A stretch of DNA of 64,000 bases from positions 226,087 through 290,086 of the forward strand of contig CAYFWB010000001.1 in NCBI GenBank assembly GCA_964346765.1. Direction: 5' to 3'. Position 1 is the first letter of the stretch. Each line of letters begins with the position of its first letter. Positions 2,877 through 63,689 of this stretch are shown here, piece after piece. The stretch comes from an uncultured Candidatus Peribacteria bacterium. GTDB lineage: Bacteria; Patescibacteriota; Gracilibacteria; UBA1369. The notes below the pieces were generated by a model, which worked only from the letters and a program-made list of their open reading frames with translations, did not search any database and was not told the DNA's origin. The position numbers were made by a program, and so were the translations under genes.

Positions 2877-4241
2877 ATGGAAAGAACTGTCGGCAGTTTA
2901 TTTTTAAAGATTTTTTCAATCTTGTTTTTTGCGGCCTTCGCGGGTACTACCCTTTTTTTTGCCTACGGTTATCGGTTTGACGTAGAGGAGCGGATTTTGG
3001 AAAAAACGAGTATTATTGATGTTATCAATGAAGTGAGTGATGTATCACTTTTTTTGAATGGCAGAGAGGTGGTTCAGAATATTCCTTATCAGATAAAGGG
3101 GGTTCTGCCCGGTTTACATGATCTTAAACTTCAAAAAAAAGGTTTTTTGACGTGGGAAAGGACAGTTAAGGTGGAAGAGGATATTGTTACTATTGTTGTA
3201 GATGCTTTACCGGTACCGGCTGATTTAGATCTTTTTTATAAAGAAGTTTTGAAATTGAATACCGATGATGAAATATTTTTCGGAGATGATTTTATATTGT
3301 CTTATGCTTCTGGAGACAATGATGTTCGGCTGATTAATCTTTTTGATAATGGCAAAATTTTGGAGGAAATAATAAGTTTGTATCAGGAGGATTTTGAGAT
3401 TGTGGATGTTTATGCTAAGGAAAAATTTTTAATAACTTTCGGGGATCCGTATAGTGAATATAAAGCTGTTCTTTATGCTTATGTGAGTTTTGCTGAAAAG
3501 GAATTTGATTTATTCGCTCTGCCCGAAGAGGCTGAAAGAATACGTGTGGATGGTCGAAATAATTACGTTTTCTTTTTGCGTGAAGGGGATTTGTATGGCA
3601 TATCGTTTGATCGATTGAAAGAGAATGAGTTTGATTCAAATGAATATATGCCGATCAAGTCCGGTGTTGAAAAATTTGATATTGATGATAGGGGTAATCT
3701 TTTTTATATTTCGACAGGCATGCTCTATAAAAGTTGGTATAATGGTGAAAATGTGAAATTGTTGGATCAGCATCCTTTGAGGTATAAGAACCTTGCTATT
3801 AATTTTGTAGGTAACAATAAGTCGCTTGTAGTGCGGGCAAATGATGATACAAGGAAGTTGTTTTATTTAAGCGACAGTGGTGACGTTAGACTGTTATCTG
3901 AAAATTTATATGGTAACGCGGATATTAACGGCCGTAATGAAATGATATATAGTGATACCGAAGGGCATATTTTTCTTTTTGACGTTGTAGATCAAGAAAA
4001 GACGTATATTGAACAAATTGAATCTGAATTTGAGCTTATGGGGTGGTTTGGGGATGACGGTTATTTTGTTATTAAAAAAGGGACTACGGTTTACCTGCAT
4101 GATCGTTTTCACGTGGAACCGGTGGTTTTGTTTGATCAATTGGAGAGCGATTTTTCGGTACTTGTGGGAAGAGCTTTTTATACTTATAAAGACGGCATTT
4201 TAAGTCGCCTTTATTTTGATGAAGCCTATTTGAATGAATAA
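2877..4241 (+). CDS. membrane-anchored PEGA-domain-like protein, function unknown
   Basis: N-terminal TM helix followed by a PEGA-like beta segment (VSLFLNGREVV...GLHDLKLQKKGFLTWERTVKV). Start is contiguous with the greA stop. Confidence 0.6.
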   Translation: MERTVGSLFLKIFSILFFAAFAGTTLFFAYGYRFDVEERILEKTSIIDVINEVSDVSLFLNGREVVQNIPYQIKGVLPGLHDLKLQKKGFLTWERTVKVEEDIVTIVVDALPVPADLDLFYKEVLKLNTDDEIFFGDDFILSYASGDNDVRLINLFDNGKILEEIISLYQEDFEIVDVYAKEKFLITFGDPYSEYKAVLYAYVSFAEKEFDLFALPEEAERIRVDGRNNYVFFLREGDLYGISFDRLKENEFDSNEYMPIKSGVEKFDIDDRGNLFYISTGMLYKSWYNGENVKLLDQHPLRYKNLAINFVGNNKSLVVRANDDTRKLFYLSDSGDVRLLSENLYGNADINGRNEMIYSDTEGHIFLFDVVDQEKTYIEQIESEFELMGWFGDDGYFVIKKGTTVYLHDRFHVEPVVLFDQLESDFSVLVGRAFYTYKDGILSRLYFDEAYLNE

Positions 4242-37135: not shown

Positions 37136-40100
37136 ATGGCGGATGATCAAAAGCAAAATCAGACTTCTGTAAATGTTCCGGCGGTTCAGGATAATGATGC
37201 TCCGGCACCGGATTGGCTTAAGAACACTAAAGATCTTGCTATTCATGAAGAAAATAAAAAAGTGTCCAATCAAAATGGAGCTCATGTTGCGCAAAGTGAA
37301 TCCCGGCCTTTGCAGGAGAAAACGAAGTTTTCAAATCAAGTTCAACCAATGATCGAGCAAAAAGAAGAAAAGAAGAGTGTTGAAGATTTGACAAAAAAAG
37401 AATTGCCGGCTTGGTTGCAGGTAGCTCAAGGGCAGTCGGCCAAGGCGGGTGAAACGGCGCTGCCTAAAGACGGCGGATCGGAAGATAAAACACAAAATCA
37501 GAAAGTTGAACAGGCGGCGGTCAAAAGTTTTTCCGGTACAGCCGCCCAGACTAATCAAACAGGTGTGCAGTCTGTTTCGCAAAGGGGAGACACGGCATTT
37601 TCAGAGGCTGTGCAAACTAAAGCTAAAGCTGGGGTTGAAGATAAAGCTGTTGATCAACAGTCCAAATCTGTGCCGGTTAAAACGGCGGGTGATATTTCAG
37701 CGGTCAATCAACAAAAAGCGGTTGCCGCGCCATCGGGTTTGCTTGAAACCGCTTCCAATGGTAATCCGAAACAGTCTATGATCCAGACGGCTCCTGCGGA
37801 AAATGTTGTTGAGCCGGTTGAGAGCAAGCAGTCTGTTCCGGCAAAAAAACAACCAAAGGTTTCAGAGTCTCAGCAAAAAAACAAAAAAAAAGAAAAAAAG
37901 GAGGAAGTAGCTAAGAAGAAAAAGGATCTTTTTGAATCAGCTAAAAAAATTTTTGTAAAATCAGCGGAAAATGCTAAGGCGGCGGTTGAAGAAGGCAGAA
38001 CGGCAGGTGTTCCTGAAAAGAAAAGTAAGAAAGAGGCCGTTCGGGTTACTCCAGTTGATAAAGGTAAGAAAGGATCTAAAAAAAAGGACGCGGAAGTGAC
38101 GGCCGAGGAAAAACAAAAATTGATTGAGGCTGAAAAAATATTTCAGGAGGGTTTGACTACAATCCGGGATTTGATTGCTCCTTCTTCCATGGAGATCAGA
38201 TACGATTCGTTGAGAATAGAAGGAATGTACGCGCAGAGTTTTTATGTTTATACATACCCTAGGTACCTAAATACGAACTGGCTCAGTCCGATTGTGAATT
38301 TTGACGTGACCATGGATATAGCGCAGTTTATATATCCTATTGATTCAAGCGAAATAATGAAAGTGTTGAAGAAAAAAGTTACTCAGATGCAATCGTCGGT
38401 CAGAATGAGACAACAGAAGGGGATGGTTAGTGATCCGGCACTGGAAACCGCTTTGCAGGACGCGGAAGAATTGCGAGTGCAGATCCAAAGAGGACAGGAG
38501 AAGTTTTTTCAGTTTGGTTTGTATTTCACAATCTATACCTCTGAAGAAAAAAAAATCGACAAGGTCGCGAAGCATTTGGAAAGTTTGCTCGGGGGTAAAT
38601 TGATTTTAACAAAAAAGGCGGAGCTTCAGATGGAGCATGCTTTTAATTCAACTCTGCCATTGTGTCTGGACGAGCTGGAAATTCGTTCAAATATGAATAC
38701 TTCCCCTTTGTCGAGTACTTTTCCTTTTAGCTCTTCGGATCTTACTTCGGATGAAGGAATTTTGTACGGACTTAACAGGCATAATGACAGTCTGATAATT
38801 TTTGATAGATTTTCACTTGAAAATGCCAATTCGGTTGTGTTCGCGAAATCCGGTGCGGGAAAGTCTTATGCTGTAAAACTTGAAATTTTAAGATCGATGA
38901 TGACGGGTTCTGATGTGATTGTGATTGATCCGGAAAATGAATATGAAGCATTAAGTCAAACGGTTGGAGGTTCTTATTTAAGAGTTTCTTTGACTTCGGA
39001 GAGGCGTATTAATCCTTTTGATTTGCCGCAACCTCTTGAAGGCGAAGAGGAAATGCCCGGAGATGTTTTAAGGTCCAATATTATCAATTTAAACGGTCTT
39101 CTAAAAATTATGTTGGGCGGGATTACTCCCGAAGAGGAGGCGATTTTGGATAAAGCTTTGAATGATGTTTACGCGTTGAAGGGAATAACTATGAAAGTGG
39201 TGGATCCAAGCAGTATACCGCCGCCCACGATGGAAGATCTTCAACAAATTTTATCAACTATGGAGGGAGCTACCAGTATGGCTCAGAGACTTGAAAAGTT
39301 TACCAGCGGTACCTATTCCGGGATTTTTAACAAGCCGACAAATATTGATTTGCAGAGTGGGTTGATGGTTTTCAGTATTAGGGATTTGGAGGACGCATTG
39401 AGGCCTATCGCCATGTATATTATTTTGAATTATATATGGAGCAGAGTGAGGTCGAAATTAAAAAGGAGGTTGCTTGTGATCGATGAGGCTTGGACTATGA
39501 TGCAGTATGAAGATTCGGCCAAGTTTTTGTTTGGACTTGTAAAAAGGTCCAGAAAGTATTTTTTAGGTATTACTACAATAACACAGGATGTTGAGGATTT
39601 TATTAAGAGTCCTTATGGAAAGCCCGTTGTAACTAACTCGTCGACGCAGCTTTTATTGAAGCAGGCGCCCGCCGCAATTGATATTTTGGCGAAGATATTT
39701 AATTTAACCGAAGGAGAAAAATATATGCTTTTAAACAGCGGTGTTGGACAGGGATTGTTTTTTGCGGGGTTAAAACATGTGGCGATACAGATAATTGCTT
39801 CATATACGGAAGACAAGATCGTTACCACTAATCCCGAGGAAATATTAAGAAGTAGGGAGATTATGGAACAGTATGAGTCATCTTCTTTTTCTAATCAGCA
39901 GTCAGTAAATAATGGGTCTTCCACTGATAATTCTACACAACCTGCGGCCTCTGAACAGCAGGTTACACAACAGCCTGATACTCTACAGCAGGGGGAGGCG
40001 GCAGGAGGTGTGAAGCAATCAGTTCAAGAGGGAACAGAGCAGACGGCCGCGCCGGTCTCGGCAGGGACTCAAAGTGCGGATCAAACTAAAAATGCGACAT

Positions 40101-40234
40101 ATCCTGTTGAAACGCCCGTGCAACAAACCGGCGCGGCCCAGCCAGATCAACAGCCGACAACGAATTCGCAGGTGATGCCCGGTGAAATTCCTTCATCCGG
40201 GGAAGAAATTAAGTATGAACCTCCACATGAATAG
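37136..40234 (+). CDS. VirB4/TrsE-family type IV secretion-like ATPase with ~330 aa low-complexity N-terminal and ~130 aa Q/T-rich C-terminal extensions
   Basis: CagE/TrbE/VirB-like segment (IAPSSMEIRYDSLRIEGMYAQSFYVYTYPRY...), Walker A FAKSGAGKSY and Walker B RRLLVIDEAW. Confidence 0.8.
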   Translation: MADDQKQNQTSVNVPAVQDNDAPAPDWLKNTKDLAIHEENKKVSNQNGAHVAQSESRPLQEKTKFSNQVQPMIEQKEEKKSVEDLTKKELPAWLQVAQGQSAKAGETALPKDGGSEDKTQNQKVEQAAVKSFSGTAAQTNQTGVQSVSQRGDTAFSEAVQTKAKAGVEDKAVDQQSKSVPVKTAGDISAVNQQKAVAAPSGLLETASNGNPKQSMIQTAPAENVVEPVESKQSVPAKKQPKVSESQQKNKKKEKKEEVAKKKKDLFESAKKIFVKSAENAKAAVEEGRTAGVPEKKSKKEAVRVTPVDKGKKGSKKKDAEVTAEEKQKLIEAEKIFQEGLTTIRDLIAPSSMEIRYDSLRIEGMYAQSFYVYTYPRYLNTNWLSPIVNFDVTMDIAQFIYPIDSSEIMKVLKKKVTQMQSSVRMRQQKGMVSDPALETALQDAEELRVQIQRGQEKFFQFGLYFTIYTSEEKKIDKVAKHLESLLGGKLILTKKAELQMEHAFNSTLPLCLDELEIRSNMNTSPLSSTFPFSSSDLTSDEGILYGLNRHNDSLIIFDRFSLENANSVVFAKSGAGKSYAVKLEILRSMMTGSDVIVIDPENEYEALSQTVGGSYLRVSLTSERRINPFDLPQPLEGEEEMPGDVLRSNIINLNGLLKIMLGGITPEEEAILDKALNDVYALKGITMKVVDPSSIPPPTMEDLQQILSTMEGATSMAQRLEKFTSGTYSGIFNKPTNIDLQSGLMVFSIRDLEDALRPIAMYIILNYIWSRVRSKLKRRLLVIDEAWTMMQYEDSAKFLFGLVKRSRKYFLGITTITQDVEDFIKSPYGKPVVTNSSTQLLLKQAPAAIDILAKIFNLTEGEKYMLLNSGVGQGLFFAGLKHVAIQIIASYTEDKIVTTNPEEILRSREIMEQYESSSFSNQQSVNNGSSTDNSTQPAASEQQVTQQPDTLQQGEAAGGVKQSVQEGTEQTAAPVSAGTQSADQTKNATYPVETPVQQTGAAQPDQQPTTNSQVMPGEIPSSGEEIKYEPPHE

Positions 40235-53768: not shown

Positions 53769-53863
53769 TGGTAACGTCCGTGCAACGTGTGAAGTTTGGC
53801 AGTGGTAAAATTTGTGACGAAGGAGCTTACCACTGCTAAATATGGACGGTGTAAGACGATTGT
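53769..53863 (-). repeat. attC-like imperfect palindrome (first of a tandem pair with no ORF between)
   Basis: TGGTAAC|GTCCGTG..., hairpin TTTGGCAGTGGTAA/TTACCACTGCTAAA. AACGTCC pairs with GGACGGTG. Confidence 0.5.
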
Positions 53864-53962
53864 GCCTAACGTCCCAGGAGTATGAGAGGTTGTCGTCGGG
53901 AACTTGCGACCAAAGGCAATTTGGATGGAGCCGAAGGAGGAATCTCATATTCCTTGTTATAT
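53864..53962 (-). repeat. attC-like imperfect palindrome
   Basis: GCCTAAC|GTCCCAGG...GGCAATTTGGATGG...CCTT|GTTATAT. The GTTATAT core overlaps the HAD stop codon. Confidence 0.55.
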
Positions 53963-54679
53963 ACAGTTCTTATTCTGGTGAGGGTACTGAAAAAACTGCA
54001 TTTCTTTTAACTCTCGTAAATCGGAACAACTTTTTTCATAGAAAAAATTTGACCGTTTTCGGTTTAACCAAATTCCCAGAAGACCTGCATCAGTTGCACC
54101 AATTGCATCTTTTTTCAAATTATCACCAATATAAATAACATTTTTAGATTCTACTTTAAACAATTCAGCACTTTTTTGAAAGAAAATTGGATTGGGTTTT
54201 GACATTCCTTCGGATTCTGCAGTGATTACAAATTTGAAATATTCAAAAATACCTGTCTTTTTCAATTTAAACTCTTGTTGTTTTTGAGCTCCATCTGAAA
54301 GAATACCTAATTCAATGTTTTGATGTTTTAAAAATTCTAAAGTTTCAATAACATCAGGATAAAGAGTCCAAGAGTTCTCATAATAACCAAGATACTTATT
54401 GAAATATTTAAAGGATTCATGTTCTGTCATCTTTTGGTTTTGGAAAATGTCTCGAATCCTTCGAATTTGTTGTTCCCTAAAAGTAATTTTCTGAGTTAAA
54501 AAATCCTTGATATGGTTTTCAGAAACTGTTTTCCAAAGAGTAACAAAAGTGCTTTCATCATAATTGGGTATAATAGAAGAAAACATAAAACCAAATTTTT
54601 CTGCTGCATCAATTTCTGCTTTTGAGTGGTTAACTAATGTATCATCTAAATCAAACAGTACTTTAATAATTTTCTCCAT
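53957..54679 (-). CDS. HAD-superfamily hydrolase, cassette ORF
   Basis: I trimmed this to MEKIIKVLFDLDDTLV (DxDxT motif I). It also has SDG (motif II region) and GDNLKKD (motif IV). The tracked TTG-initiated extension runs through the repeat. Confidence 0.8.
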   Translation of the reverse strand: MEKIIKVLFDLDDTLVNHSKAEIDAAEKFGFMFSSIIPNYDESTFVTLWKTVSENHIKDFLTQKITFREQQIRRIRDIFQNQKMTEHESFKYFNKYLGYYENSWTLYPDVIETLEFLKHQNIELGILSDGAQKQQEFKLKKTGIFEYFKFVITAESEGMSKPNPIFFQKSAELFKVESKNVIYIGDNLKKDAIGATDAGLLGIWLNRKRSNFFYEKSCSDLRELKEMQFFQYPHQNKNCI

Positions 54680-54691
54680 AATAAAAATTGT

Positions 54692-54817
54692 ACATAACGT
54701 TCCAGCATATGCGACGTTTGCCCTTGGTATAATTTGCGACCAGCGGGAGCTTGCCACGGGCAAATATGGACTAAGCGACGAGGTACGAGGGGCGTAGTCG
54801 TATACTGCGGATTGTAT
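54692..54817 (-). repeat. attC-like imperfect palindrome (right core degenerate)
   Basis: ACATAAC|GTTCCAGCATATGCGAC pairs with GTCGTATACTGCGG. Hairpin TTTGCCC/GGGCAAA and second hairpin GACTAAGC/GCGTAGTC. It ends in ATTGTAT instead of GTT.... Confidence 0.55.
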
Positions 54818-54832
54818 AATGTAATGAAAAAT

Positions 54833-55174
54833 TTATCCATTAAAAATTATTTGGGCTACTTTTTTGTGTAAGGAATTGGGAAAACTCCTTTTAACTTCAT
54901 AACGGTGGGGGAAGTAGTTTTTGTATTCACTTTTGCTACAAACTCGTAAAACTTCATTCTTGTAAGTGATAGCAAAACCAACTTTTCTGTATACTTTTTT
55001 ATATTTTTGTGAAAGTGAATTTTCCAATTTTTTTAATTGGATTTTTAATTTTATGGTTGGTCTTGTTTTTAGAACTACAACCAAATTTAAATGAGAGATT
55101 AAAGATTTTGCTTTTCCTGTAGCAACACTTCCATACAAATAAATGCCGTGAATCTTACTAAAAAATTTCAGCAA
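54833..55174 (-). CDS. nucleotidyltransferase-fold fragment resembling the N-domain of ANT/AadA-type enzymes, with catalytic Asp residues replaced
   Basis: IYLYGSVATGKAKSLISHLNLVVV aligns with the GS...(S)DxDL motif but reads HLN. Only 113 aa. Confidence 0.45.
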   Translation of the reverse strand: MLKFFSKIHGIYLYGSVATGKAKSLISHLNLVVVLKTRPTIKLKIQLKKLENSLSQKYKKVYRKVGFAITYKNEVLRVCSKSEYKNYFPHRYEVKRSFPNSLHKKVAQIIFNG

Positions 55175-55191
55175 TTAAGATTTTACATTTT

Positions 55192-55458
55192 TTACAATTC
55201 TTCTAATGCTTGAACTATTAATTGGTAATTTCGAGTTTTCTCCCTACCTTCTTCGTGTGCGTGTGGACCATTGCACCATTCTAATAACTCGTCTCTGGTT
55301 TCGCTTAGTGATGCTATTAGTTCTGGTGTAATTTCTTCTTCCCTAAATCTGTTACTAAAAGTTTTTTCTAAAGAATTTATATCACTGCGAGGTATTTCTT
55401 TTAAGAATTCTCCTAATTTCATATATATAAGGTTAATTATGTAAGTTAACGCTACCAT
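55192..55458 (-). CDS. hypothetical small protein (88 aa; alternative start at 55422), same cassette as 54833..55174
   Basis: Intact ORF 17 nt upstream of the NTase-like ORF, with no repeat element between them. Confidence 0.4.
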   Translation of the reverse strand: MVALTYIINLIYMKLGEFLKEIPRSDINSLEKTFSNRFREEEITPELIASLSETRDELLEWCNGPHAHEEGREKTRNYQLIVQALEEL

Positions 55459-55504
55459 AGCATTACTAAGAATTATGTCAAGTCCAGCTTAACTAAAATA
55501 TGGC

Positions 55505-55630
55505 GCACAACGTCCTAGACTTTGTGAAATTTGGTGGCGGTAAAATTTAGAGCGAAGCGACATACTTCCGCCAAATTTGGGTGAATGACTGAACGAAGTG
55601 AGGGAATGAACCGTATATACCTTGTTATGT
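55505..55630 (-). repeat. attC-like imperfect palindrome
   Basis: GCACAAC|GTCC...CCTT|GTTATGT, hairpin AAATTTGGTGGCGG/CCGCCAAATTT. A 37-nt block (55576-55612) is identical to 60445-60481. Confidence 0.6.
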
Positions 55631-55646
55631 ATTGGTCAATTTATTT

Positions 55647-56402
55647 TTATCTGTATTCAGGATTTGGATGATCGAATTTACATCCAGCTTCCCATTTTGA
55701 TCTTTGATTCCCATGGGGAGGAATACCTCCATTATTTTTTAGCATTCTTGCCATATGGAGAAGATTCCAAGTCATGAACGTAGTATTGCGTTGGGTAAAG
55801 TCATTTTGAGGACCGCCACTTCCTTCGTCTAAATACGAAAGTCCCGGTCCAGCTTCACCGATCCAGCCAGCATCAGCTTGCGGAGGTATAGTAAACCCCA
55901 GGTGTTGCAAAGAATAAAGCACTCCCATGCCAACATGTTTGATTCCATCTTCATTTCCCGTAACTATACAACCTCCTGCACGTCCATAATAAGCATACTG
56001 GCCGTGCTCATTAAGTTCACCCGATTGGCCATATAATCTTTCAATAACTCTTTGACATACCGATGATTTTTCTCCAAGCCATATAGGAGATCCTAGTATC
56101 AGGATATCACTTGCCATCACTTGTTTAAAAACTTTAGGCCAGTCGTCTTTTTGCCATCCGTCTTCAGTCATATCTGGCCAAACCCCGGAAGCTATATCTA
56201 AATCAACAGCACGAATTTCTTTGACGGAAACATTGTTTTTTTCCATTATAGCTTTTGATACAGCAATAAGCCCATCAGTGTGTGATTTTTCCGGCGTTTT
56301 TTTTAGAGTGCAATTGATAAATAACGCCTTGAGATCCGAGAAATCCCATTTAGAGGATACACACAACTCTTCTTGTTTTGGTGATAGTTTAGTCATATTC
56401 AT
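55647..56402 (-). CDS. flavodoxin-fold NAD(P)H-dependent FMN reductase-like oxidoreductase, cassette ORF
   Basis: LILGSPIWLGEKSSVCQRVIERL flavodoxin-like pattern. It is visibly GC-richer than its neighbours. Confidence 0.75.
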   Translation of the reverse strand: MNMTKLSPKQEELCVSSKWDFSDLKALFINCTLKKTPEKSHTDGLIAVSKAIMEKNNVSVKEIRAVDLDIASGVWPDMTEDGWQKDDWPKVFKQVMASDILILGSPIWLGEKSSVCQRVIERLYGQSGELNEHGQYAYYGRAGGCIVTGNEDGIKHVGMGVLYSLQHLGFTIPPQADAGWIGEAGPGLSYLDEGSGGPQNDFTQRNTTFMTWNLLHMARMLKNNGGIPPHGNQRSKWEAGCKFDHPNPEYR

Positions 56403-56439
56403 AGTTTAAAAAATAAATTGTATTATACATATCATTGTT

Positions 56440-57378
56440 TTAAAAAGTGGGGCTATCATACTTTACAGTTTTAGCTATTATCTGTTTTACTTCTACAGAA
56501 TCAGGATACCAGATCAAAGTATCTAAATCATGTTCAACAGAGTAGAGATCTAACCTCTTATCCAAATTTTCAAATTCAAAAAGTTCTGGATAAAATTCCT
56601 GAAACCAATCCAAAAGATTAGCGTAATCTTCTTTTTTTGCAAATTTTTCAAATTTTTCGGACATATACTTTTTCGGATACTCAACCATTCTTTTAATAAT
56701 ATCCAAAACGAAGTCCATTGAAGAAACTTCTGTCCTCTCAAAATCTAAAATGCCGACAATCTTTGTATCTTGAACTAGAATATTATCAAAGTGAGCATCC
56801 CAATATACTAGTGTTAGTTTTTGCTCCTTGAGAATATTATGATTGTCGTTAACAAAATTTTTGATGACTTTGATAAATTCAGAGGACAGAAGTTTTTTTT
56901 CTTCAATTTTCTTTAATGAGTTTTGAATTTGGTTGAGTATCTTGTCGTGCCAGTTGTCCGAAAAATTTACATCAAACTTTTGCAGAAATTCATCATATGG
57001 CGATTTGTTGATCACTTTGAGAATATTACAAAGCTGTTTGATGATGATTTTCCTCTGGTCGTTGTTCAATAAATGCCATTTTGAGTACAGATTATCGCCA
57101 TCAATCTTGGGGTAAATCATGAAAAATTTGTCATAAATACCCTTGGATTTATCAAAAACGCTGATTTTAGGAATAGGAATTTTATCTTTAAAAAAATTGT
57201 AGAAAAATACCTCAATTTCAAACTTTTCTTCATTAGTTATATCTTCACAAACTTTGAGAATATATTTATCGTTAATAATATAAACTTTATTTGTGAAGCC
57301 AATTTCAATTTTTTGAAAAGTTTTAACTTCTCCTAATTTATGTTCTTTGAAAATTTTTTCTACAGTTTTTTTTTCCAT
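56440..57378 (-). CDS. phosphotransferase enzyme family protein (APH/choline-kinase fold), cassette ORF
   Basis: Catalytic loop VYWDAHFDNILV (HxDxxxxN) and the metal-binding ILDFE motif. Very AT-rich. Confidence 0.8.
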   Translation of the reverse strand: MEKKTVEKIFKEHKLGEVKTFQKIEIGFTNKVYIINDKYILKVCEDITNEEKFEIEVFFYNFFKDKIPIPKISVFDKSKGIYDKFFMIYPKIDGDNLYSKWHLLNNDQRKIIIKQLCNILKVINKSPYDEFLQKFDVNFSDNWHDKILNQIQNSLKKIEEKKLLSSEFIKVIKNFVNDNHNILKEQKLTLVYWDAHFDNILVQDTKIVGILDFERTEVSSMDFVLDIIKRMVEYPKKYMSEKFEKFAKKEDYANLLDWFQEFYPELFEFENLDKRLDLYSVEHDLDTLIWYPDSVEVKQIIAKTVKYDSPTF

Positions 57379-57425
57379 ATAAATTGATAAGAGGTTAGAT
57401 TATATAAATTTTAGCCCCACTTTTT

Positions 57426-57478
57426 TCTATTGATAGTACATTGATTTTGGTGAGTAGCCACGAAGCGCTGTGTTGGGA
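57426..57478 (-). repeat. truncated attC-like element (right half only) abutting the IS110-family insertion
   Basis: GATTTTGGTGAGTAGCCACGAAGCGCTGT|GTTGGGA resembles the right halves of the other elements. The left RYYYAAC half is missing. Confidence 0.4.
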
Positions 57479-58659
57479 GTATAAGTCCCGTCGCATAACA
57501 TGTGGGCTCCTGAAATGTCTCAAAGAAGCGAATAGGCTAGTTGGGGTCGCATCCCCGAACTATATACGAACCTGCTTTTGACATGTCAAGGGGTCTTCGC
57601 AGCTACCACCTTTCTCTTTTTCTTCTCTCTTCTTTTTCTCTTTACACTTTATGCCCGATACAAGCTAAAAATCAAGCTCATGAAAAAATATATAGGTATT
57701 GATGTCTCCAAACGTGATTTTCACGTCTGTTTCAGTGAGAATGGAGCGGTTTCAAAATTTGAAAATTCTGTGGCTGGTATTCGTAATTTCCTTGATTATC
57801 TCAAGCAAAATCGTTTTTCCACCAAAAGCACGCTTATCGGTTTGGAATCAACAGGATCATATCATTTGCAACTTTCTTTTCTCGCAACAAAAGTGGGTTA
57901 TACGGTGAATGTTATCAATCCTTTAATCACTCGCAGGCAAAGCAAAAGTGTCGTTCGTAGCGTCAAAACGGACGCGCATGATTCCGTTCTCATTCGTCTT
58001 TGCGTTATTCAGGGCGTGGGTCATCCATTTCGTGATACCGCTGATTCTCTTGCCCTCAAGACTCTGGTTCGTCAAAGGGCGGGGCTTTCAATGTTCAGGT
58101 TACAGGCAAAATTGCGACAGGAAGAGGTTTGTTTACGAGAAAGCTATCTTGAAAATGACATTTCCGAAGTGAATAAAGAGCTTGTGGAATTTTTTGATGA
58201 AAAGATCCTGTTTCTGGATCGAAAAATCAGAAAATTCAATCCCGGATTACAAAAATTGTTGCAGTCAATTCCCGGGGTTGGTCCACAAACGGCTTCAACC
58301 TGCGTCGCGGAAATTGGCGATATCATGCGGTTTCCCCACGCAAAGGCTTTGACAGCCTATGTTGGGCTGGATTCGCGCGTGTATGAGAGCGGAACGAGTA
58401 TTCATGGCAAAGGATATATCTCCAAGCGTGGTAGCAAGATATTACGCACCCGTTTCTACAATGCCGCTTCTGTTGCCGTTCTACACGAAAATATATTCAG
58501 AGAGTTCTTTCTCAAAAAACGCTCGGAGGGAAAACCCTATCGCGTTGCCCTTTGCGCCGTGATGCACAAAATGGTGCACGTTGTTTTTGCAGTCTGGAAG
58601 CGTGTTTCACCTTTTATTAACGATGTATCTCAAAAAAGTTCTTGACGGGGATATCGCTA
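57475..58659 (+). mobile_element. IS110-family insertion sequence (approximate ends)
   Basis: Intact DEDD transposase and a ~200 nt structured non-coding leader. Subterminal inverted repeat AGTCCCGTC (57484-57492) / GACGGGGAT (58644-58652). It is flanked by GTTGG... on the left and GTTAGCT on the right, which are attC-like core sequences. Confidence 0.65.
57680..58645 (+). CDS. IS110-family (DEDD) transposase/recombinase
   Basis: I trimmed this to MKKYIGIDVSKRDF. It has LESTGSYH and KTDAHDS, plus the C-terminal Transposase_20 pattern (IPGVGPQTAS...YVGLDSRVYESGTS...ISKRGSK). Confidence 0.9.
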   Translation: MKKYIGIDVSKRDFHVCFSENGAVSKFENSVAGIRNFLDYLKQNRFSTKSTLIGLESTGSYHLQLSFLATKVGYTVNVINPLITRRQSKSVVRSVKTDAHDSVLIRLCVIQGVGHPFRDTADSLALKTLVRQRAGLSMFRLQAKLRQEEVCLRESYLENDISEVNKELVEFFDEKILFLDRKIRKFNPGLQKLLQSIPGVGPQTASTCVAEIGDIMRFPHAKALTAYVGLDSRVYESGTSIHGKGYISKRGSKILRTRFYNAASVAVLHENIFREFFLKKRSEGKPYRVALCAVMHKMVHVVFAVWKRVSPFINDVSQKSS

Positions 58660-59040
58660 GTTAGCTGAAGTTTGATCTATTTTAGATAAAAAGATTATAT
58701 TAAATACAATTGCTCCAAATGCTATTAACCCAACAAGGAAAGCAAATCCATAACCTACGCCGTGTCCTGGTTGACCTGGAAGTCCATTAGCTGAAATATT
58801 GTATATTTCTGCAAAAACCAAAAAGTACATGATCCAAGTCTGGCTTAAGTGCTTTTGTAGATTAGTTGATTCATTTTCTACGTTATTTATAAAGGTATTT
58901 GCTTTCCAGGCTGCGAATATTAATGTTGGGATGAAAATTAGAAATCCCATAAAGGGTATAATAGTAAAAATAATGAAACCTAATATTAGACCTATAAATA
59001 AGTAGATCCCGTAAATGATGGAATTTATATAATTTTTCAT
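58657..59040 (-). CDS. small polytopic membrane protein (127 aa), cassette ORF
   Basis: Four hydrophobic helices. The last sense codon AAC is the AAC of the cassette-end core (AGCTAAC). Confidence 0.5.
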   Translation of the reverse strand: MKNYINSIIYGIYLFIGLILGFIIFTIIPFMGFLIFIPTLIFAAWKANTFINNVENESTNLQKHLSQTWIMYFLVFAEIYNISANGLPGQPGHGVGYGFAFLVGLIAFGAIVFNIIFLSKIDQTSAN

Positions 59041-59066
59041 GTTGTGAGGGATTAAAATTAAATTTC

Positions 59067-59080
59067 AGATAACGTTTGCA
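59067..59080 (-). repeat. left stub of an attC-like element split by the IS4-like insertion
   Basis: AGATAAC|GTTTGCA. The element continues at 60408. Confidence 0.5.
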
Positions 59081-60407
59081 GCACTAGTGTTGCGTCAAAG
59101 CAAAAACTGAAATGAGTATTAAGCATACAATAAAGCAAAATGAGTTGTTTTGCAATTTTTCGATTTGAATGAAGGCTGGGATAATAAGAGTGTTTTTTAA
59201 TTAACTTACATATCCTTATGAATATCGATAGATACGTTTTTTTTCAGATTACTGATTTTATTTCAGTTTATGAATTCAATAGTTTTATCCAAAAATATCA
59301 TGGAAATAAAAAAATAAGAGAGCTCACTTGCCGCGATCAATTTCTATCGGTCATGTTCGCCCAACTTACAGGACTACAAAGTCTGAGAGGGATAGTTTTA
59401 TGCCTAAATGCACATGAATATCAGTTATATCACTTGGGTTTTCGTTCAAAAAAGTTTGTTCTTTCAACACTCTCACGAGCGAATCAATTTCGCGATTGGA
59501 GGATATGGTATGATTTTACGGAGCATCTTATTTTTAAGGCCAGAAAGCTATATATCAATGATAATGATTTTTCAATCGAACTCAAAAACTCGATTTATGC
59601 ATTGGATTCAACGGTTATTGATTTTTGTCTTGCAACATTCAAATGGGCTTATTTTGAACTTCAAAAATCAGCTGTTAAAGTCCGTACACAGCTTGATTTG
59701 AAAGGTAATATTCCTTCGTTTTTCTTCATAACTAAGGCTAAAGTTCATGATGTGAATTTTCTTGATCAGTTGGAATTTGAGAAGGACGCGATCTACATTA
59801 TGGATCGTTGATATTTCGATTTTGAGCGGCTTCATACTATTCATGCTCAAGGCGCGTTTTTTATTATCCGCTCCAAGGAAAGTTTATCGTTTCAACGGAT
59901 ATATTCTCATGCGGTTGAGAAAAATACGGGTTTACGGTGCGATCAAACGATTAAATTGAAACATTTTTACGCGCACAAACGGTATCCGGAAAACCTGCGT
60001 CGTATCAAATATTACGACCCTGTGTCCGATACGCATTATGTTTATCTTACAAACAATTTTGAGATTTCCGCGCAAACAGTAGCCGATCTTTACAGGCATC
60101 GCTGGCAGATTGAATTTTTTTTCAAATGGATGAAGCAGTATCTCAAAATTCAAGTTTTTTGGGGTTACTCATTCAACGCGGTGAAGACGCAAATCTGCAT
60201 TGCAATTGCAACGTTTTTGCTTGTGGCGATCATGAAAAAGGAACTCAAAATTAAGCGCGATCTCTACGAAATTCTACAAATCTTATTGGTCTCTCAATTT
60301 GAGAAAACCGCTTTAGCAAGCCTTTTGAGTCAGGCAACATCACAGAAACCGAATTCAGGTATTCAAGAACGCCTTCCCTTAGCCATTGTTTAATGCAACA
60401 CTAGTGC
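59081..60407 (+). mobile_element. IS4-family-like insertion sequence (~1.33 kb) inserted in an attC-like element
   Basis: 13-bp terminal inverted repeats GCACTAGTGTTGC (59081-59093) / GCAACACTAGTGC (60395-60407). A flanking direct repeat GTTTGC (59074-59079 and 60408-60413) is the candidate target duplication. Confidence 0.75.
59218..60393 (+). pseudogene. IS4-family DDE transposase (DUF4372-like N-terminus plus DDE_Tnp_1-like core) with a single in-frame TGA at 59809-59811
   Basis: One reading frame throughout. D (IYALDST), D (YIMDR*YFDF, where the stop replaces Gly of DRGY) and E (YRHRWQIEFFFKWMK) are all present. Confidence 0.8.
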
Positions 60408-60499
60408 GTTTGCCGATATGAGAAGTTGCGATCGAAGGGAGCAATTTGGGTGAATGACTGAACGAAGTGAGGGAATGAACCTCATAGTCTCTGTTGTCT
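60408..60499 (-). repeat. attC-like element, right part (after the IS4-like insertion)
   Basis: GTTTGCCGATATGAGAAGTTGCGATCGAAGGGAGCAATTTGGG...CTCT|GTTGTCT. Confidence 0.55.
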
Positions 60500-60514
60500 G
60501 ATGTTGCGCTGATC

Positions 60515-61186
60515 TTAAAATCCCAGTTCTGCTTCACATTCTTTTTGTTCGGCCTTGCCTTTTTGTACTTGATAGTCAGGAACAGTATATGGCTTTAATG
60601 TATTTGGATTTTCTACGTCTAAATAACCAAAATTATCCCAATCTGCCCAAATTGAAAAGCATGGGCCAGGTGAATTATCAATAAGGTCGTACATGACGAT
60701 GAGTTTTGATCCTTCGATTCCCAGAGTTCTTAAAATCCGATTTTCATGCTCTTCATAAAGTTTTGATAATTCACCGGTTTTAATGTTGTAAGAATAGATC
60801 TTGTTCGTGCTTTTCATGTCTGGCCATTCTCCTGTTACATCTCCACTGGTTGAGACGAAAATTACATTGTTATCGGATGGAGACTCTGGAGCATGGAAAC
60901 TTTCCATGATTTCATCTGTTTTTGTTTTAATATCGGATCTGAACGATTCCCATTGTGGACTATCATAGCTGTAACCCTGTTCGATTGTTGGCGTGACTTT
61001 TTTCGTCTCAACCACTTCTTCGGGCTCAGTGGTTTGGTCAGATTGGGTGTCTGCAACTTCTTCCGTTGGAGTTTGTACAGTGATTTTTGTGCTTTGCCAC
61101 CAATACATGCCGCCTCCAACTACGATTGCAGTAATGACTACTGTTAAGATGATTGGCCATATACTGTTCCGGTTCTGTTCGTTCAT
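60515..61186 (-). CDS. N-terminally anchored secreted protein (223 aa), cassette ORF
   Basis: Signal-anchor IWPIILTVVITAIVVGGGMYWWQ. Paralogous anchor and flanks to 52574..53152. Confidence 0.6.
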   Translation of the reverse strand: MNEQNRNSIWPIILTVVITAIVVGGGMYWWQSTKITVQTPTEEVADTQSDQTTEPEEVVETKKVTPTIEQGYSYDSPQWESFRSDIKTKTDEIMESFHAPESPSDNNVIFVSTSGDVTGEWPDMKSTNKIYSYNIKTGELSKLYEEHENRILRTLGIEGSKLIVMYDLIDNSPGPCFSIWADWDNFGYLDVENPNTLKPYTVPDYQVQKGKAEQKECEAELGF

Positions 61187-61262
61187 AGTTTTATTTGTTA
61201 AATGAATAAATTTAATGAATTAGAATATTTACGATTTCAAGTATACAGATTAGCGCAATTTT

Positions 61263-61362
61263 AGACAACGTTTGCGACTAAGCGAAGTTTTGTGGCGTAG
61301 CGAAGGCAAATATGGGTGGAGGTCCGCTGTGGCGGACCGTAACCAGATATGCCGTGTTAGGC
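61263..61362 (-). repeat. attC-like imperfect palindrome
   Basis: AGACAAC|GTTTGCGACTAAGCGAAGTT...GGCAAATATGGG, hairpin GGTCCGC-TGTG-GCGGACC, then ...CCGT|GTTAGGC. Confidence 0.6.
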
Positions 61363-61375
61363 GAAGTCTCTGACA

Positions 61376-62350
61376 TTATTTATTATTTCTTAAAAAGAAC
61401 GCACAAGCATCTCCTTGATTCTTTAGGTTTAATTTTTTTGCTTTTTGTTTGAATACTGTAATTTCTGTATTTGAGAAAATTGAATTTGATGGATCTACTC
61501 CATATGAACGAGGATCTTTTAAAGGTATATTTTTGAGATATTGTTCACTTCCCCAAAATTGAAAATCAGTTGAGTTATACACAATTTCTTCTAAATTAAG
61601 ATTTACCTTTTCTGCTAGTAAGGTAATGCTTTTGATCGAATGGAGAAAGAAATGTCTTGGTGCATCAAGTTGAACCCAATTCTCTCTATAATGTTCCCAA
61701 GCATAAGAAGAGACAGTCGGGACTATAATTAAACAAATTCCTTTTTTGTTAAGTAATCTTGAAACAGACCAAAGAGTCTCTGTAGGGTCTGGGATATGTT
61801 CAAAAGAATGATGAAACATTATTAGATCCCATTTACCATCAAGTTTGTGAATTGACTTTTTTAAGATTTTTAATCCATTTTTGTATTCAATATCGTCCTT
61901 GATATAAGGATCAATGCCTAATAAATTTCTAAAACCAATTTCTTTGTAGCTATGGAGAAGAGAGCCGCTTCCGCATCCAACATCTAATATGGTAATATTT
62001 TTTGATAGATGAACCCGTGATGCCCATTGGTGGCTTTCTAGAGGAAAAAAAGTGTAAATTAATTTACCAAGAGCTCCTTTTTTTTGGATAGCATAGCTGT
62101 TTCTTAAATTTTTAATAAATCTCTTCATTGGATTTTTTGATCCTTCTAGGGAAGGCAAGAGAAAGCTGTAGTAATTCGAAGGATAGTATTTTGACATATC
62201 TTCGGGGAAATCAGCAATTTGAAGGCATCCACATTTCGAACACTGGAAATAAGTGAATTTATCTCTAAAACCAAACATCATTTCTTTCACTTCATATACC
62301 TTATTCCCATTCGAGTTATTACAAATTTTACATTTCATATTTTTCTCCAT
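61376..62350 (-). CDS. class I SAM-dependent methyltransferase with an N-terminal zinc-ribbon, cassette ORF
   Basis: CKICNN...CSKCGC zinc ribbon and SAM motif I (ILDVGCGSGSL). Confidence 0.8.
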   Translation of the reverse strand: MEKNMKCKICNNSNGNKVYEVKEMMFGFRDKFTYFQCSKCGCLQIADFPEDMSKYYPSNYYSFLLPSLEGSKNPMKRFIKNLRNSYAIQKKGALGKLIYTFFPLESHQWASRVHLSKNITILDVGCGSGSLLHSYKEIGFRNLLGIDPYIKDDIEYKNGLKILKKSIHKLDGKWDLIMFHHSFEHIPDPTETLWSVSRLLNKKGICLIIVPTVSSYAWEHYRENWVQLDAPRHFFLHSIKSITLLAEKVNLNLEEIVYNSTDFQFWGSEQYLKNIPLKDPRSYGVDPSNSIFSNTEITVFKQKAKKLNLKNQGDACAFFLRNNK

Positions 62351-62378
62351 TATTTTTAATTTTTATGTCAGAGATTTC

Positions 62379-62500
62379 GCCTAACGTCCATGAATAACTG
62401 AAGTTTGGTGGCGGTATAATTTGAAGCGGAGCGACATACCTCCGCCAAATTTGGGAGTAGTGAACCGAAGGCGAACGGAACCGCAAAGTCTTTGTTATGT
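62379..62500 (-). repeat. attC-like imperfect palindrome
   Basis: GCCTAAC|GTCCATG..., hairpin AAGTTTGGTGGCGG/CCGCCAAATTT, then ...CTTT|GTTATGT. Confidence 0.6.
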
Positions 62501-62509
62501 GATGTTAAG

Positions 62510-63217
62510 TTATGACACGGGAGTGCTGATTTTTTCGGTAATTATCTTAATAATTTTTTCATTGTTTTCTTTTTGTCTAGGATTATTTGTTTGATTATTG
62601 ATATATCGTTCATAAAATATTACCATCTCTGAATAATTAGTGTCATTTTTTAGTTTTTTCAAAATTTCATATTTGTTGAGTGTTGTTATGCCTTGTATCC
62701 ACAAAAAATTTCTTATTATTTCACCAATATATAAATTTTTTTGAAGAATATTTTTAGATTTTTTATGCTTTTCTAATAACAGATTGATTTTATCGACATA
62801 TTCTTTTTTTGAAGGAGTAGCCAATTTTAATTTTGATACTACATCATCGCCAAAAATTAAAATGTTATTTTGCTTAAGATCTTCAAAAAAATAGGTGAAT
62901 ATTTTTAGTTTTGAATTTTTATATGAACCTTCTATCTCCCAAGGCATATCAATAATTTTTTCAAAATGAGAAGTCTTTAATTTTGAAAAAACGGAATTCA
63001 GTTTTTTTGATAATTCTGTACTAATTATAGATGCATTTTTTTTAGTTATGTCATTATCAAAAATAATTAGTACATCAATGTCGCTTATTCCTAAAACGAA
63101 ATCTCCACGAGCAAGACTTCCCACAATATAGACAGACTTTATGAATTGTCCGTTTATGTTAGACTTATTGTTATTAAAAAAATTATTAATTTTAGCAATT
63201 ATTTGATCCTTGTTCAT
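62510..63217 (-). CDS. nucleotidyltransferase-domain protein (GS-x9-SDIDxL), cassette ORF
   Basis: VYIVGSLARGDFVLGISDIDVLIIF polymerase-beta-type NTase motif plus a helical C-terminal domain. Confidence 0.75.
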   Translation of the reverse strand: MNKDQIIAKINNFFNNNKSNINGQFIKSVYIVGSLARGDFVLGISDIDVLIIFDNDITKKNASIISTELSKKLNSVFSKLKTSHFEKIIDMPWEIEGSYKNSKLKIFTYFFEDLKQNNILIFGDDVVSKLKLATPSKKEYVDKINLLLEKHKKSKNILQKNLYIGEIIRNFLWIQGITTLNKYEILKKLKNDTNYSEMVIFYERYINNQTNNPRQKENNEKIIKIITEKISTPVS

Positions 63218-63266
63218 GAAAATATTATTAAGGTTTCAAAAGGAGGTGGTGTCATTACTTAATTTC

Positions 63267-63380
63267 ACATAACGTTCGCGACTATGCGAAGTTGCACGGG
63301 TGTATAATAGCCGAAAGCGAAAACCCGTGCAATTTGGGAGAGCGAACGGAGCGATAGCGGAATGAGTGAACCAGTTATTC
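63267..63380 (-). repeat. attC-like imperfect palindrome
   Basis: ACATAAC|GTTCGCGACTATGCGAAGTT, hairpin GCACGGGT/ACCCGTGC, AATTTGGG, then ...ACCA|GTTATTC. Confidence 0.55.
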
Positions 63381-63486
63381 ATTTTTTTGATAAGTAGCAC
63401 GCTGTCATCCTTAATAGCCAAAAGCATACACTCCAATGTGTTTATGTTGTTTCATAGGTTTTTATTTAGTTAGCCCAGCTAATTTT

Positions 63487-63583
63487 GCCTAACGTTCCAG
63501 TATATCTGATGTTTGCCGTAGTGAAACGGAGGCAAATATGGGTCGAGCGACGGCAGGAGCGAGCCAGATATACGCTGTTGTCC
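63487..63583 (-). repeat. attC-like imperfect palindrome
   Basis: GCCTAAC|GTTCCAGTATATCTGA pairs with CCAGATATACGCTG (2-nt bulge). Hairpin TTTGCC/GGCAAA, then ...|GTTGTCC. Confidence 0.6.
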
Positions 63584-63689
63584 GACCCGAGCGGAACGTA
63601 GTGGAGCGAGAGTGCAATGAGGCAAGTCCGTAAGGATAGCGAAGGACGTAGCGTACATTTTTTATCTTTCTTTTTTCTCCATTAATTTA

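Follow-up and report, generated by a model that had tools for sequence, protein, structure and literature searches.

The closest described relatives of the locus considered here are integrons, in which co-oriented cassettes, mostly with a single open reading frame (ORF), are separated by imperfect palindromes (attC sites) that run from an R'' box (RYYYAAC) to an R' box (GTTRRRY), the TTRRRY of a cassette matches the cassette's own R'' and strand exchange takes place at G/TT (the slash marks the crossover). The I2 domain of the integron integrase IntI and the extrahelical bases of attC are viewed as having co-evolved for recombination of a folded single strand. The chicken-and-egg problem of the I2 domain and attC has been stated explicitly by Escudero et al. 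2016 (PMC4792948). In the integrative mobile elements exploiting Xer (IMEX) of the CTX-phage type, XerCD acts on a folded single-stranded attP composed of two inverted dif-like sites (PMC3442271), and in the pdif modules of Acinetobacter genes lie between inversely oriented XerC/XerD sites (PMC7399989). Here we describe a cassette array of integron type in a stretch of 64,000 nucleotides, hereafter the window, from an uncultured Candidatus Peribacteria bacterium (assembly GCA_964346765.1, contig CAYFWB010000001.1, positions 226,087 to 290,086), nearly all of whose cassettes carry inverted repeats, or arms, at their two ends. These arms are probably the two halves of the outer helix of a folded attC site, split by the crossover and rejoined in the circular cassette, and the array represents a real, widespread and apparently undescribed variant of integron gene capture.

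The array occupies 53.7-64 kb of the window with all genes on the minus strand, and as in integrons its tandem, co-oriented short ORFs lie between recombination sites that are imperfect palindromes. Its cargo comprises a HAD hydrolase, a small NTase pair, an FMN reductase, an APH, a membrane protein, a secreted protein, a methyltransferase and an NTase. The intergenic elements are 85-126 nt long and richer in GC than their surroundings; there are 16 on the contig, 11 of them within the window, and the matches of a profile built from nine elements (nhmmer, search of the window) were confined to 53,772-63,584. The end of a metagenomic contig (JGI 3300012002 Ga0153774_1000020, here L001), identified through an exact match of the NTase protein, carries the same cassette genes on its plus strand (window coordinate = 69318 - L001 coordinate) and extends the array 5.3 kb past the window end, where the contig stops inside the array. 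A pattern scan of GTDB representative genomes gave at least 120 loci with homologous attC sites, mostly from metagenome-assembled genomes (MAGs) of Patescibacteria, the candidate phyla radiation (CPR); the others are from DPANN archaea, Omnitrophota, Cloacimonadota, Zixibacteria and some Gammaproteobacteria, all taxon labels being MAG bin assignments, and the binning of such contigs may be unreliable. Iterated nhmmer searches over these loci yielded 275 sites and, from them, 134 non-redundant cassettes bounded by two detected sites. A second, independent set consisted of 17 new cassettes from metagenome loci fetched via the recombinase described below, and 12 class-1 cassettes from six plasmids (L124-L129) formed the sole canonical control, which is small.

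In gene orientation the element reads RYYYAAC-A...ATAT...CCCAWATT...AAAC.TC..ATAT...GRAC-GTTRRRY, with AAC at the aligned position in 254 and GTT in 257 of the 275 family sites. The hairpin, R box, L stem and variable branched tip of attC sites are all present, and the sites are homogeneous within arrays, as in integrons. The original prediction had described the pairing as oriented differently from that of canonical attC, which was wrong: the imperfect palindrome lies downstream of its ORF, as in canonical polarity. A reversed site orientation was likewise rejected on the extra bases, the ORF direction, the attI junctions and the array polarity, all of which are canonical.

All seven pairs of terminal repeats claimed for the window were found in the sequence at, or no more than 1 nt from, the positions given for them, and the HAD pair, confirmed at 15/18 over the span claimed, extends to 20/25. 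Inverted repeats of similar size are frequent by chance in the AT-rich array DNA (158 pairs in 10.5 kb), and a positional test restricted to cognate ends was therefore used, in which the 35 nt that follow the R' of each L001 cassette were set against the 120 nt that precede its own R'' and the result was permuted against the other cassettes. The 12 cassettes of L001 reached a cognate local score of 12.3, compared with 8.2 +/- 1.7 for non-cognate ends (permutation p <= 1e-5). Four of them that had seemed negative (C1, C2, C5 and C6) possess the arm at a distance of 37-66 nt from R'', shifted by a GC-rich insertion, and C3, which has no ORF, carries a stem of 24/28. Among the 134 cassettes, cognate ends matched at 6.1/13 of positions 13-25 and non-cognate ends at 3.5/13 (p = 2e-9), with 10/13 or more matches in 33.6% of cognate and 0.34% of non-cognate pairs. 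When the two sides of a single attC within the array were compared, the match was 3.7/13, the background level (n = 65); it is thus the two ends of a cassette that pair, and not the sequences across one intergenic element, as had been claimed.

The number of similar inverted pairs in AT-rich DNA might speak for chance, and intrinsic terminators or the terminal inverted repeats of a transposon could also be thought of, yet we give this group of explanations practically no credence. Chance repeats were rejected by the permutation of cognate against non-cognate ends and by the two-flank control, and terminator hairpins, which the original prediction had named as an alternative, are excluded because the ORF separates the two arms by 0.4-1 kb or more. 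A transposon with terminal inverted repeats or a miniature inverted-repeat transposable element was rejected because the arms differ from cassette to cassette beyond 12 nt and no target-site duplications occur at the junctions. Furthermore, the junctions coincide with the attC and attI crossover points.

The counts of cognate matches are bimodal across the 134 cassettes. Fifty pair in register, beginning exactly at the GTT/AAC triplets that had been proposed as the boundary of complementarity, with match frequencies of 0.82-1.0 over positions 1-9 and 0.88-1.0 over positions 12-22, interrupted by values of 0.22 and 0.06 at positions 10 and 11; the pairing is at background by about position 27, most stems stopping at 22-26 and few reaching 35-45. 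In 33 further cassettes the same arm is displaced by 37-89 nt through a GC-rich module (above the 99th percentile of the null). Pairing was thus found in a total of 83/134 cassettes (~62%), and in 11/17 (~65%) of the independent metagenome set, reaching position 22-26, so that the R box is not the outermost helix, as it is in canonical attC. The first 12 nt are generic (GTTRRRY-GA-AA-T at the 5' end versus A-CA-TC-RYYYAAC at the 3' end), and the sequence beyond them is cassette-specific. Not all of the extension is cassette-specific: its first 5 nt (GAAAT and ACATC) are generic and contain a conserved 2-nt mismatch that had gone unnoticed. Within the R box itself, cognate ends matched at 5.9/7 and non-cognate ends at 4.7/7, in agreement with the claim that the TTRRRY of a cassette matches its own R''.

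The class-1 cassettes matched at 3.6/5 of positions 8-12 (non-cognate 1.6/5), with a perfect 12 bp in five, and at background over positions 13-25 (3.3/13 versus 3.2/13). The canonical R-proximal duplex is therefore about 12 bp and not 7 bp, and the claim that the pairing is longer than the canonical one stands on this corrected baseline: the unusual part is the 10-15 bp (up to >30 bp) by which the helix runs past the ~12 bp of class-1 cassettes, plus the fixed mismatch at positions 10-11. Pairing over 12 bp was seen in catB3, aadB, aadA2, aadA16, aacA4 and others, and is consistent with an 11-bp Xer-type binding arm; if GAAAT is the outer half of such a recombinase-binding arm, this would also explain the 12-bp pairing in class-1 cassettes. 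Four metagenome loci with an I2-bearing IntI had no recognisable repeated attCs upstream and were hence unusable as an environmental control.

The arms covary. In L088_3369 and L111_3849, two homologous cassettes of 72% identity, the outer arm (GCCTGCCCAC in L088, GCCTGTTTAC in L111) shows a CCC/TTT difference and the R box an A/G difference; each change has its counterpart on the opposite arm, and both stems stop at position 22. Four cassettes with SDR homologues have arm pairs that are all different and each self-complementary, so that the compensatory substitutions for which the original prediction had proposed to look do occur. Both arms of the HAD cassette extend into coding sequence, one at the start codon and the other at the C-terminus, and are still paired. 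Such observations could also be read as the trace of a mechanism without present function, the outer arms being a scar of cassette making or repair left by snap-back (hairpin-primed) synthesis that starts at the 3' end of the R' arm and copies 10-15 nt of the sequence flanking the gene, or by arm-to-arm mismatch correction in the folded circle. Re-templating would account for three adjacent compensated differences more easily than six point mutations would, coding arms are frequent (the 3' ends of the HAD and NTase genes) and have a non-coding copy upstream of the ORF as their partner, the pairing is in exact register from the conserved arm, and the same long ends are found on unrelated ORFs (L001 C2 and L030). 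A one-time scar would decay, however, whereas the stem has a fairly defined length and keeps its complementarity despite deep divergence of the ORFs, for which selection or recurrent conversion would be needed; moreover, the arrays show no evident enzyme that could carry out such synthesis. We therefore consider a mere by-product unlikely.

The circular junctions, reconstituted as a cassette's own 3' end, attC and own 5' end, are predicted to fold with a single continuous outer helix, made of the outer arms and the R box, atop a branched attC body, in line with the long R-proximal stem that had been proposed for the circularised cassette; where present, the GC-rich module is predicted to fold as a side branch. 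In 8/8 junctions the bottom strand was predicted to be more stable than the top strand, by 0.7-6.4 kcal/mol, and the methyltransferase junction, for example, forms one continuous helix with -38.2 kcal/mol for the bottom and -32.3 kcal/mol for the top strand. This fits the conserved 2 x 2 mismatch, which would favour the bottom strand, where it reads T.T + T.G, over the top strand, where it reads A.A + A.C. RNAalifold found no consensus structure in the raw MAFFT alignment of 13 attCs because the branched middle of the sites is too variable, and sequence profiles and the explicit end-to-end comparison were therefore used instead of a covariance model. An RNA-level function, with the arms pairing in a polycistronic transcript and closing each ORF as a processing or stability signal like the processing stems of rRNA, would make use of the fact that both arms are on the sense transcript, tight around the ORF, with stems of ~20-25 bp. 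The sense strand is, however, the top strand, with the less stable mismatch and the poorer fold, the stem runs without a break into the R box and stops precisely at the recombination triplets, which links it to the site in the DNA, and it is also present in the ORF-less cassette; such a function is very improbable.

The point of recombination can be located from two kinds of junctions. In about 18 GTDB and 17 metagenome loci the first cassette starts 50-160 nt from the start codon of a recombinase gene, with a GTTRRRY-GAAAT-ext' sequence that is complementary to the cassette's own 3' end and is preceded by a conserved attI motif (TCG[CT]ATA-N6-7). In addition, the same cassette was found in different contexts: L001 C2 (968-2322) and L030_3302 have near-identical ends and attC, stand behind unrelated attCs and are followed by unrelated cassettes, their homology beginning at GTT and stopping just past the next GTT, and a cassette that follows attI in L025 recurs at 90% identity in L088, where it follows an attC. 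On the strength of about 35 attI junctions and these shared cassettes, the crossover is at or next to G/TT, as in integrons and as the original prediction had placed it.

The clustering of all ORFs from the 120 loci gave one recurrent family, a tyrosine recombinase of ~270-290 aa that is present in 24/120 loci and is encoded divergently, immediately upstream of the arrays; as in integrons, the recombinase gene is divergent and attI lies 50-160 nt upstream of it. Such an adjacent divergent integrase with attI was found in 24 + about 18 related loci. The recombinases score at the cutoff of NCBIfam NF040815 ('site-specific tyrosine recombinase/integron integrase', XerA type), and reach 195-225 bits against the cutoff of 265 for TIGR02249 (integron integrase), with a match in two stretches. 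Their best solved relative is VchIntIA, and the two-stretch alignment skips IntI residues about 210-240, the IntI-specific I2 domain; the interval between KGxKDR and HSLRH is 64-68 aa in all scorable members and about 105 in IntI. The recombinases of the related arrays thus lack the additional I2 domain near patch III that marks an IntI, unlike the IntIs of the archaeal-integron paper, which have it (PMC9668308). The family has >5000 members at E <= 1e-40, the best 120 all of 259-309 aa, with named members mostly from Patescibacteria. Close homologues (~45% identity or more) in metagenomes nearly always have this attC family upstream, and the attI motif stands beside 17 close homologues but beside 0 of about 45 distant ones, nine I2-bearing IntI among these. 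The attI is dif-like (TCGYATA-N6-7-G/TTRRRYGAAAT), and the consensus of L' arm, 8 nt and R' arm (ATCGCATATA-CTGAAACG-TTATGCGAAAT) looks like a Xer dif site with 11-bp arms. The dif site of E. coli is GGTGCGCATAA-TGTATA-TTATGTTAAAT, and TTATGCGAAAT resembles its XerD arm, TTATGTTAAAT; this resemblance is a lead rather than a test. The suggestion that the window holds either a divergent attC with its own recombinase specificity or a distinct cassette-mobilising system agrees with the related loci, which have the same attC family, an I2-less, IntI-like recombinase and an attI motif of its own, whereas the recombinase of the array itself is not on the contig.

Given these results, we propose that the folded attC carries, beyond its R box, a further two base pairs (GA/TC), followed by the conserved 2 x 2 mismatch and then by a cassette-specific outer helix of about 10-15 bp, occasionally >30 bp. 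Strand exchange at G/TT would fall inside this long helix, which is therefore split in the array and would be complete only in the excised circle. Its 3' arm (TTRRRY-GAAAT-ext') is found at the cassette 5' end and its 5' arm (ext''-ACATC-RYYYAAC) after the ORF, sometimes in its last codons, hence the inverted repeats flanking each ORF. The data establish this anatomy, its generality, the covariation, the junction positions and, in the related loci, the linkage to the recombinase. The conserved GTTRRRYGAAAT would be the 11-12-nt binding arm of a Xer-type recombinase, and the variable part outside it a clamp that forms only in the excised circular cassette. We infer that the clamp would steady the folded single-stranded site of the free cassette in vivo and favour its re-integration at attI, and that integrated sites, flanked by non-cognate arms and hence weaker, would steady the array. 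The fixed mismatch would bias folding to the bottom strand, as the putative reactive strand, and may replace recognition through extrahelical bases and I2. The reaction partner in the related loci would be the divergently encoded IntI/XerA-like tyrosine recombinase of ~270 aa without I2, acting at the dif-like attI. An enzyme of this kind acting on hairpins is plausible, since Xer recombinases without I2 use a folded single strand in CTX phage (PMC3442271). By analogy with the homologous arrays elsewhere, on which the recombinase claim is founded, the window array may use such a recombinase as well.

Several observations weigh against this proposal. Neither a recombinase nor an attI was found in the window (tblastn negative) or on its contig; the array's own integrase is unseen because the contig ends within the array. 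About 35% of the cassettes have no extension, some of them being artefacts of undetected attCs or insertions, and the window has one clear exception, the two-gene cassette at 54833-55458 upstream of attC A13, which shows no extended pairing. The unpaired spacer is shorter at R''-L'' (1-3 nt) than at L'-R' (4-6 nt), the opposite of canonical attC, and no clear extrahelical bases of the canonical kind were identified in these attCs, which makes the reactive strand uncertain. The other stem mismatches lean only weakly to bottom-strand G.T wobbles (19 versus 8, p = 0.05), which is marginal. Lastly, in the pairs L088/L025 and L088/L111 the attC body is a different variant and the homology stops at the AAC of R'', and among 158 inter-locus pairs with attC bodies at least 90% identical the upstream flanks are unrelated in 116 and the downstream flanks in all 158. 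Because near-identical bodies have unrelated flanks on both sides, the AAC triplet behaves as a second breakpoint, besides the one at R' that integrons share, and bodies, GC-rich modules and ORF units reassort. An independent reassortment of attC bodies is not predicted by a simple integron chemistry restricted to the bottom strand, and the R'' breakpoints and the reversed spacer asymmetry are the main observations outside the model that we prefer.

The breakpoints at both AAC and GTT would instead be expected from double-stranded shuffling of the Xer/dif type, in which an ORF unit lies between two inverse dif-like sites (R''-L'' and L'-R'), as proposed for the pdif modules, and the hairpin and the outer complementarity are secondary, serving for example second-strand synthesis or the stability of the circle. 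The absence of I2, the domain that specialises IntI for folded single strands (PMC4792948), and the L' arm - 8 nt - R' arm, with its resemblance to dif as a lead, would suit this explanation too. It gives no reason, however, for the cassette-specific covariation of the R box and outer arms at both ends or for a conserved mismatch that differentiates the strands, the central spacing of R''-L'' is about 3 nt shorter than that of L'-R', and within an array all attCs and almost all ORFs are co-oriented; nor does the lack of I2 force it, given the folded single strand used by Xer in CTX phage (PMC3442271). We judge purely double-stranded shuffling to be improbable.

The split-helix proposal can be set against the same Xer-based systems. 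Here, as in the CTX-type IMEX, a Xer-type recombinase without I2 would use a hairpin of two inverted dif-like half-sites, ~100 nt apart, for one strand exchange with a double-stranded dif-like site; dif-like arms and spacing are found in the attC consensus and the attI is dif-like, a likeness that serves as a lead. Unlike these elements, the arrays are tandem series of small-ORF cassettes with no phage genome, and they have cassette-specific outer stems and, in the related loci, a dedicated recombinase clade with its own adjacent attI. With the pdif modules they share ORF units that are bounded on both sides by inverted Xer-like arms, and units and intervening sequences that reassort with breakpoints at both sites. 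The pdif sites, however, are 28-bp double-stranded sites common to adjacent modules, have neither a 100-nt palindromic body nor unit-specific extended complementarity, are plasmid-borne and rely on the host XerCD, whereas the half-sites in our arrays differ in their central spacing and are joined by a 100-nt body. Xer/dif resolution of chromosome dimers (archaeal XerA, XerC/D) resembles the present system in the NF040815 score at the cutoff and in the 11-bp arms, but here the sites are repeated in cargo-carrying arrays, form a long hairpin and not a simple 28-bp site, and the attI motif is confined to one recombinase clade.

attC bodies that are 95-100% identical occur with unrelated flanks in MAGs of different candidate phyla (L053_1046 and L060_908; L070, L008, L055 and L097), which points to very recent exchange, a common pool of attC bodies or binning errors. 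Cassettes with unrelated ORFs (L001 C2; L030_3302_4128, L067, L099 and L009) share ~55-nt inverted ends (TTCAAAAAATATT...ATGATAGGCTTTC) together with the same module and attC, like a common 'chassis' with exchanged cargo. Large cassettes of 3-6 kb with near-identical ends (GTTAGCTGAAATATTCCTTTTCTTTT...) were seen in L006, L007, L021, L043, L048, L062, L093, L137 and L140; their products of 790-990 aa look like fused restriction-modification enzymes, and they are often the first cassette beside attI.

A GC-rich module of 40-90 nt (~GGRAC-GTTGCAC-TCTCRCTYCGC...TCGGGTC) stands between the outer-stem arm and R'', and thus often next to R'', unlike in integrons, in ~1/4 of cassettes. It was found at window 63584-63643, at L001 845-890, 2282-2315 and 4655-4695 and in many other loci. 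Its sequence opens with GGRAC-GTTGCAC, which is R'-like, and is similar to that of the first variable hairpin in some attCs; the module and the attC body reassort independently of each other. Neither a mini-cassette nor a deleted attC accounts for it, since the cassette 5' end is cognate to the R'' that follows the module.

The features of the array within the window are collected in Table 1.

Table 1. Sites, cassette arms and insertions of the array, with positions in the window.
Feature	Position	Strand	Remarks
attC site A6	63487-63583	-	R'' GGACAAC ... R' GTTAGGC; downstream of SDR cassette; nhmmer E 5e-17
SDR cassette, 3' end	63584-63661	-	5' part of cassette lies beyond window
GC-rich module of SDR cassette, ~60 nt	63584-63643	-	inserted between R'' and displaced arm ext''
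Displaced arm ext'' of SDR cassette	63644-63661	-	18/19 match to cassette 5' end (L001 4822-4840); displacement 66 nt
attC site A7	63267-63386	-	R'' degenerate, AAC -> AAA
NTase cassette, 5' arm	63249-63273	-	GTTATGT-GAAAT-TAAGTAATGACAC (R' + ext'); 22/25 complementary to 62494-62518
NTase cassette, 3' arm	62494-62518	-	ends in R'' CACATAAC; overlaps stop codon
attC site A8	62379-62500	-	nhmmer E 3e-28
Methyltransferase cassette, 5' arm	62365-62385	-	GTTAGGCGAAATCTCTGACAT; 20/21 complementary to 61356-61376
Methyltransferase cassette, 3' arm	61356-61376	-	ends in R'' GCCTAAC
attC site A9	61263-61362	-	profile match
Secreted-protein cassette, 5' arm	61247-61269	-	GTTGTCTAAAATTGCGCTAATCT; 19/23 complementary to 60493-60515
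Secreted-protein cassette, 3' arm	60493-60515	-	ends in R'' CAGACAAC
attC site A10, R''-proximal part	60398-60499	-	split by insertion sequence
attC site A10, remainder	59067-59079	-	includes R' GTTATCT; far side of insertion sequence
IS4/IS5-like insertion sequence in attC A10	59080-60397	+	DUF4372 + DDE_Tnp_1; inverted ends CACTAGTGTTGC / GCAACACTAGTG
Membrane-protein cassette, 5' arm	59054-59073	-	GTTATCTGAAATTTAATTTT; 15/20 complementary to 58660-58679
Membrane-protein cassette, 3' arm	58660-58679	-	ends in R'' AGCTAAC; attC body beyond replaced by IS110-family element
IS110-family element	57430-58659	+	Pfam DEDD_Tnp_IS110 + Transposase_20; directly 3' of R'' AAC
APH cassette, 5' outer-stem arm	57412-57425	-	14/14 complementary to 56442-56455; R' lost to IS110 insertion
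APH cassette, 3' outer-stem arm	56442-56455	-	followed by degenerate R'' AAAACAAT; no attC body
FMN-reductase cassette, 5' arm	56409-56434	-	terminal GTT degenerate; 21/26 complementary to 55623-55648
FMN-reductase cassette, 3' arm	55623-55648	-	ends in R'' ACATAAC
attC site A12	55505-55630	-	nhmmer E 1e-27
attC site A13	54692-54817	-	R'' variant ATACAAT
HAD cassette, 5' arm	54674-54698	-	GTTATGTACAATTTTTATTATGGAG; includes start codon; 20/25 complementary to 53956-53980
HAD cassette, 3' arm	53956-53980	-	coding; stop codon inside R'' ATATAAC
attC sites A14 (53864-53962) and A15 (53769-53865)	53769-53962	-	virtually no cassette between; distal array end

At the distal end, the R' and R'' boxes of A15 and A14 overlap (GTTAGGCACAAT, window 53859-53871) and leave an 'empty' cassette of ~5 nt, similar to L001 3560-3581, and several R'' boxes of the window array end in AAT, not AAC. 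The APH and FMN-reductase cassettes (window 56403-56441) are joined without an attC body (AAAACAA/TGATATGTAT, the slash here marking the junction), apparently by precise loss of the palindromic body, and their outer arms are intact despite the missing body between them.

Two insertion sequences have entered the array, and as in integrons elements of the IS110/IS1111 type are inserted in attCs. The IS110-family element is present in two copies that are 99% identical (window 57430-58659 and, beyond the window, L001 ~2492-3618), both situated exactly after the AAC of an attC R'' box, with the junction AAC/TAGC.ATATCCCC (= AAC/TAGC.ATATCCCCGTCAAGAAC); the window copy has neither the attC body nor the R' of the next cassette on its far side. 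It looks like the attC-targeting insertion sequences of the IS1111-attC type, and target choice in the IS110-type family is RNA-guided. The IS4/IS5-like element, flanked by a 7-bp duplication (CGTTTGC), interrupts the stem system and is not a part of it. Its transposase frame of 391 codons is broken by a single in-frame TGA at 59809-59811, within ..IMDR*YFDF..; read as Gly (genetic code 25), this TGA gives a DRGY stretch, DRGY-like motifs being typical of IS4/IS5 transposases. For the host genes, the standard code gives long ORFs. This leaves either a pseudogene or an arrival from a recoded donor of the Gracilibacteria/SR1 type. The remaining window is ordinary chromosome with gyrA, gyrB, secDF, priA, glmS and a VirB4-like conjugal-transfer ATPase (CD1110 family), the last lying at 37136-40234 between gyrA and a Prc-type protease in otherwise housekeeping DNA, and a tRNA was the sole match in an Rfam scan of the window.

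In the full-text literature searched we found no account of extended attC stems, of CPR integrons or of I2-less integrases with arrays, although this absence does not prove novelty. If the detection of integrons depends on the IntI-specific domain for an integrase call, elements such as those described here would be logged at best as clusters of attC sites without an integrase, and the cassette traffic of CPR and DPANN organisms would be under-described. The cassette-specific arms also offer a new clue to the formation of cassettes, and the clamp helix suggests a principle by which free cassettes are 'armed' and integrated ones 'disarmed', which could be used in the engineering of structure-specific sites.

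Going one step further, and more tentatively, since we would hold it at somewhat less than even odds, the arrays may belong to a distinct and very widespread lineage of gene capture, in which an I2-less Xer/IntI-like recombinase works on folded attC-like sites with both AAC and GTT recombinogenic, recognition and strand choice rest on the 11-bp arm with its mismatch and on the clamp helix in place of extrahelical bases, and I2 was never acquired or was lost, be it as an ancestral integron state or as a parallel invention. If true, this would resolve the paradox of which came first, I2 or attC. Abundant attC-type arrays served by I2-less, IntI-like recombinases make the problem directly testable, and thus bear on how integrons arose from Xer recombinases.

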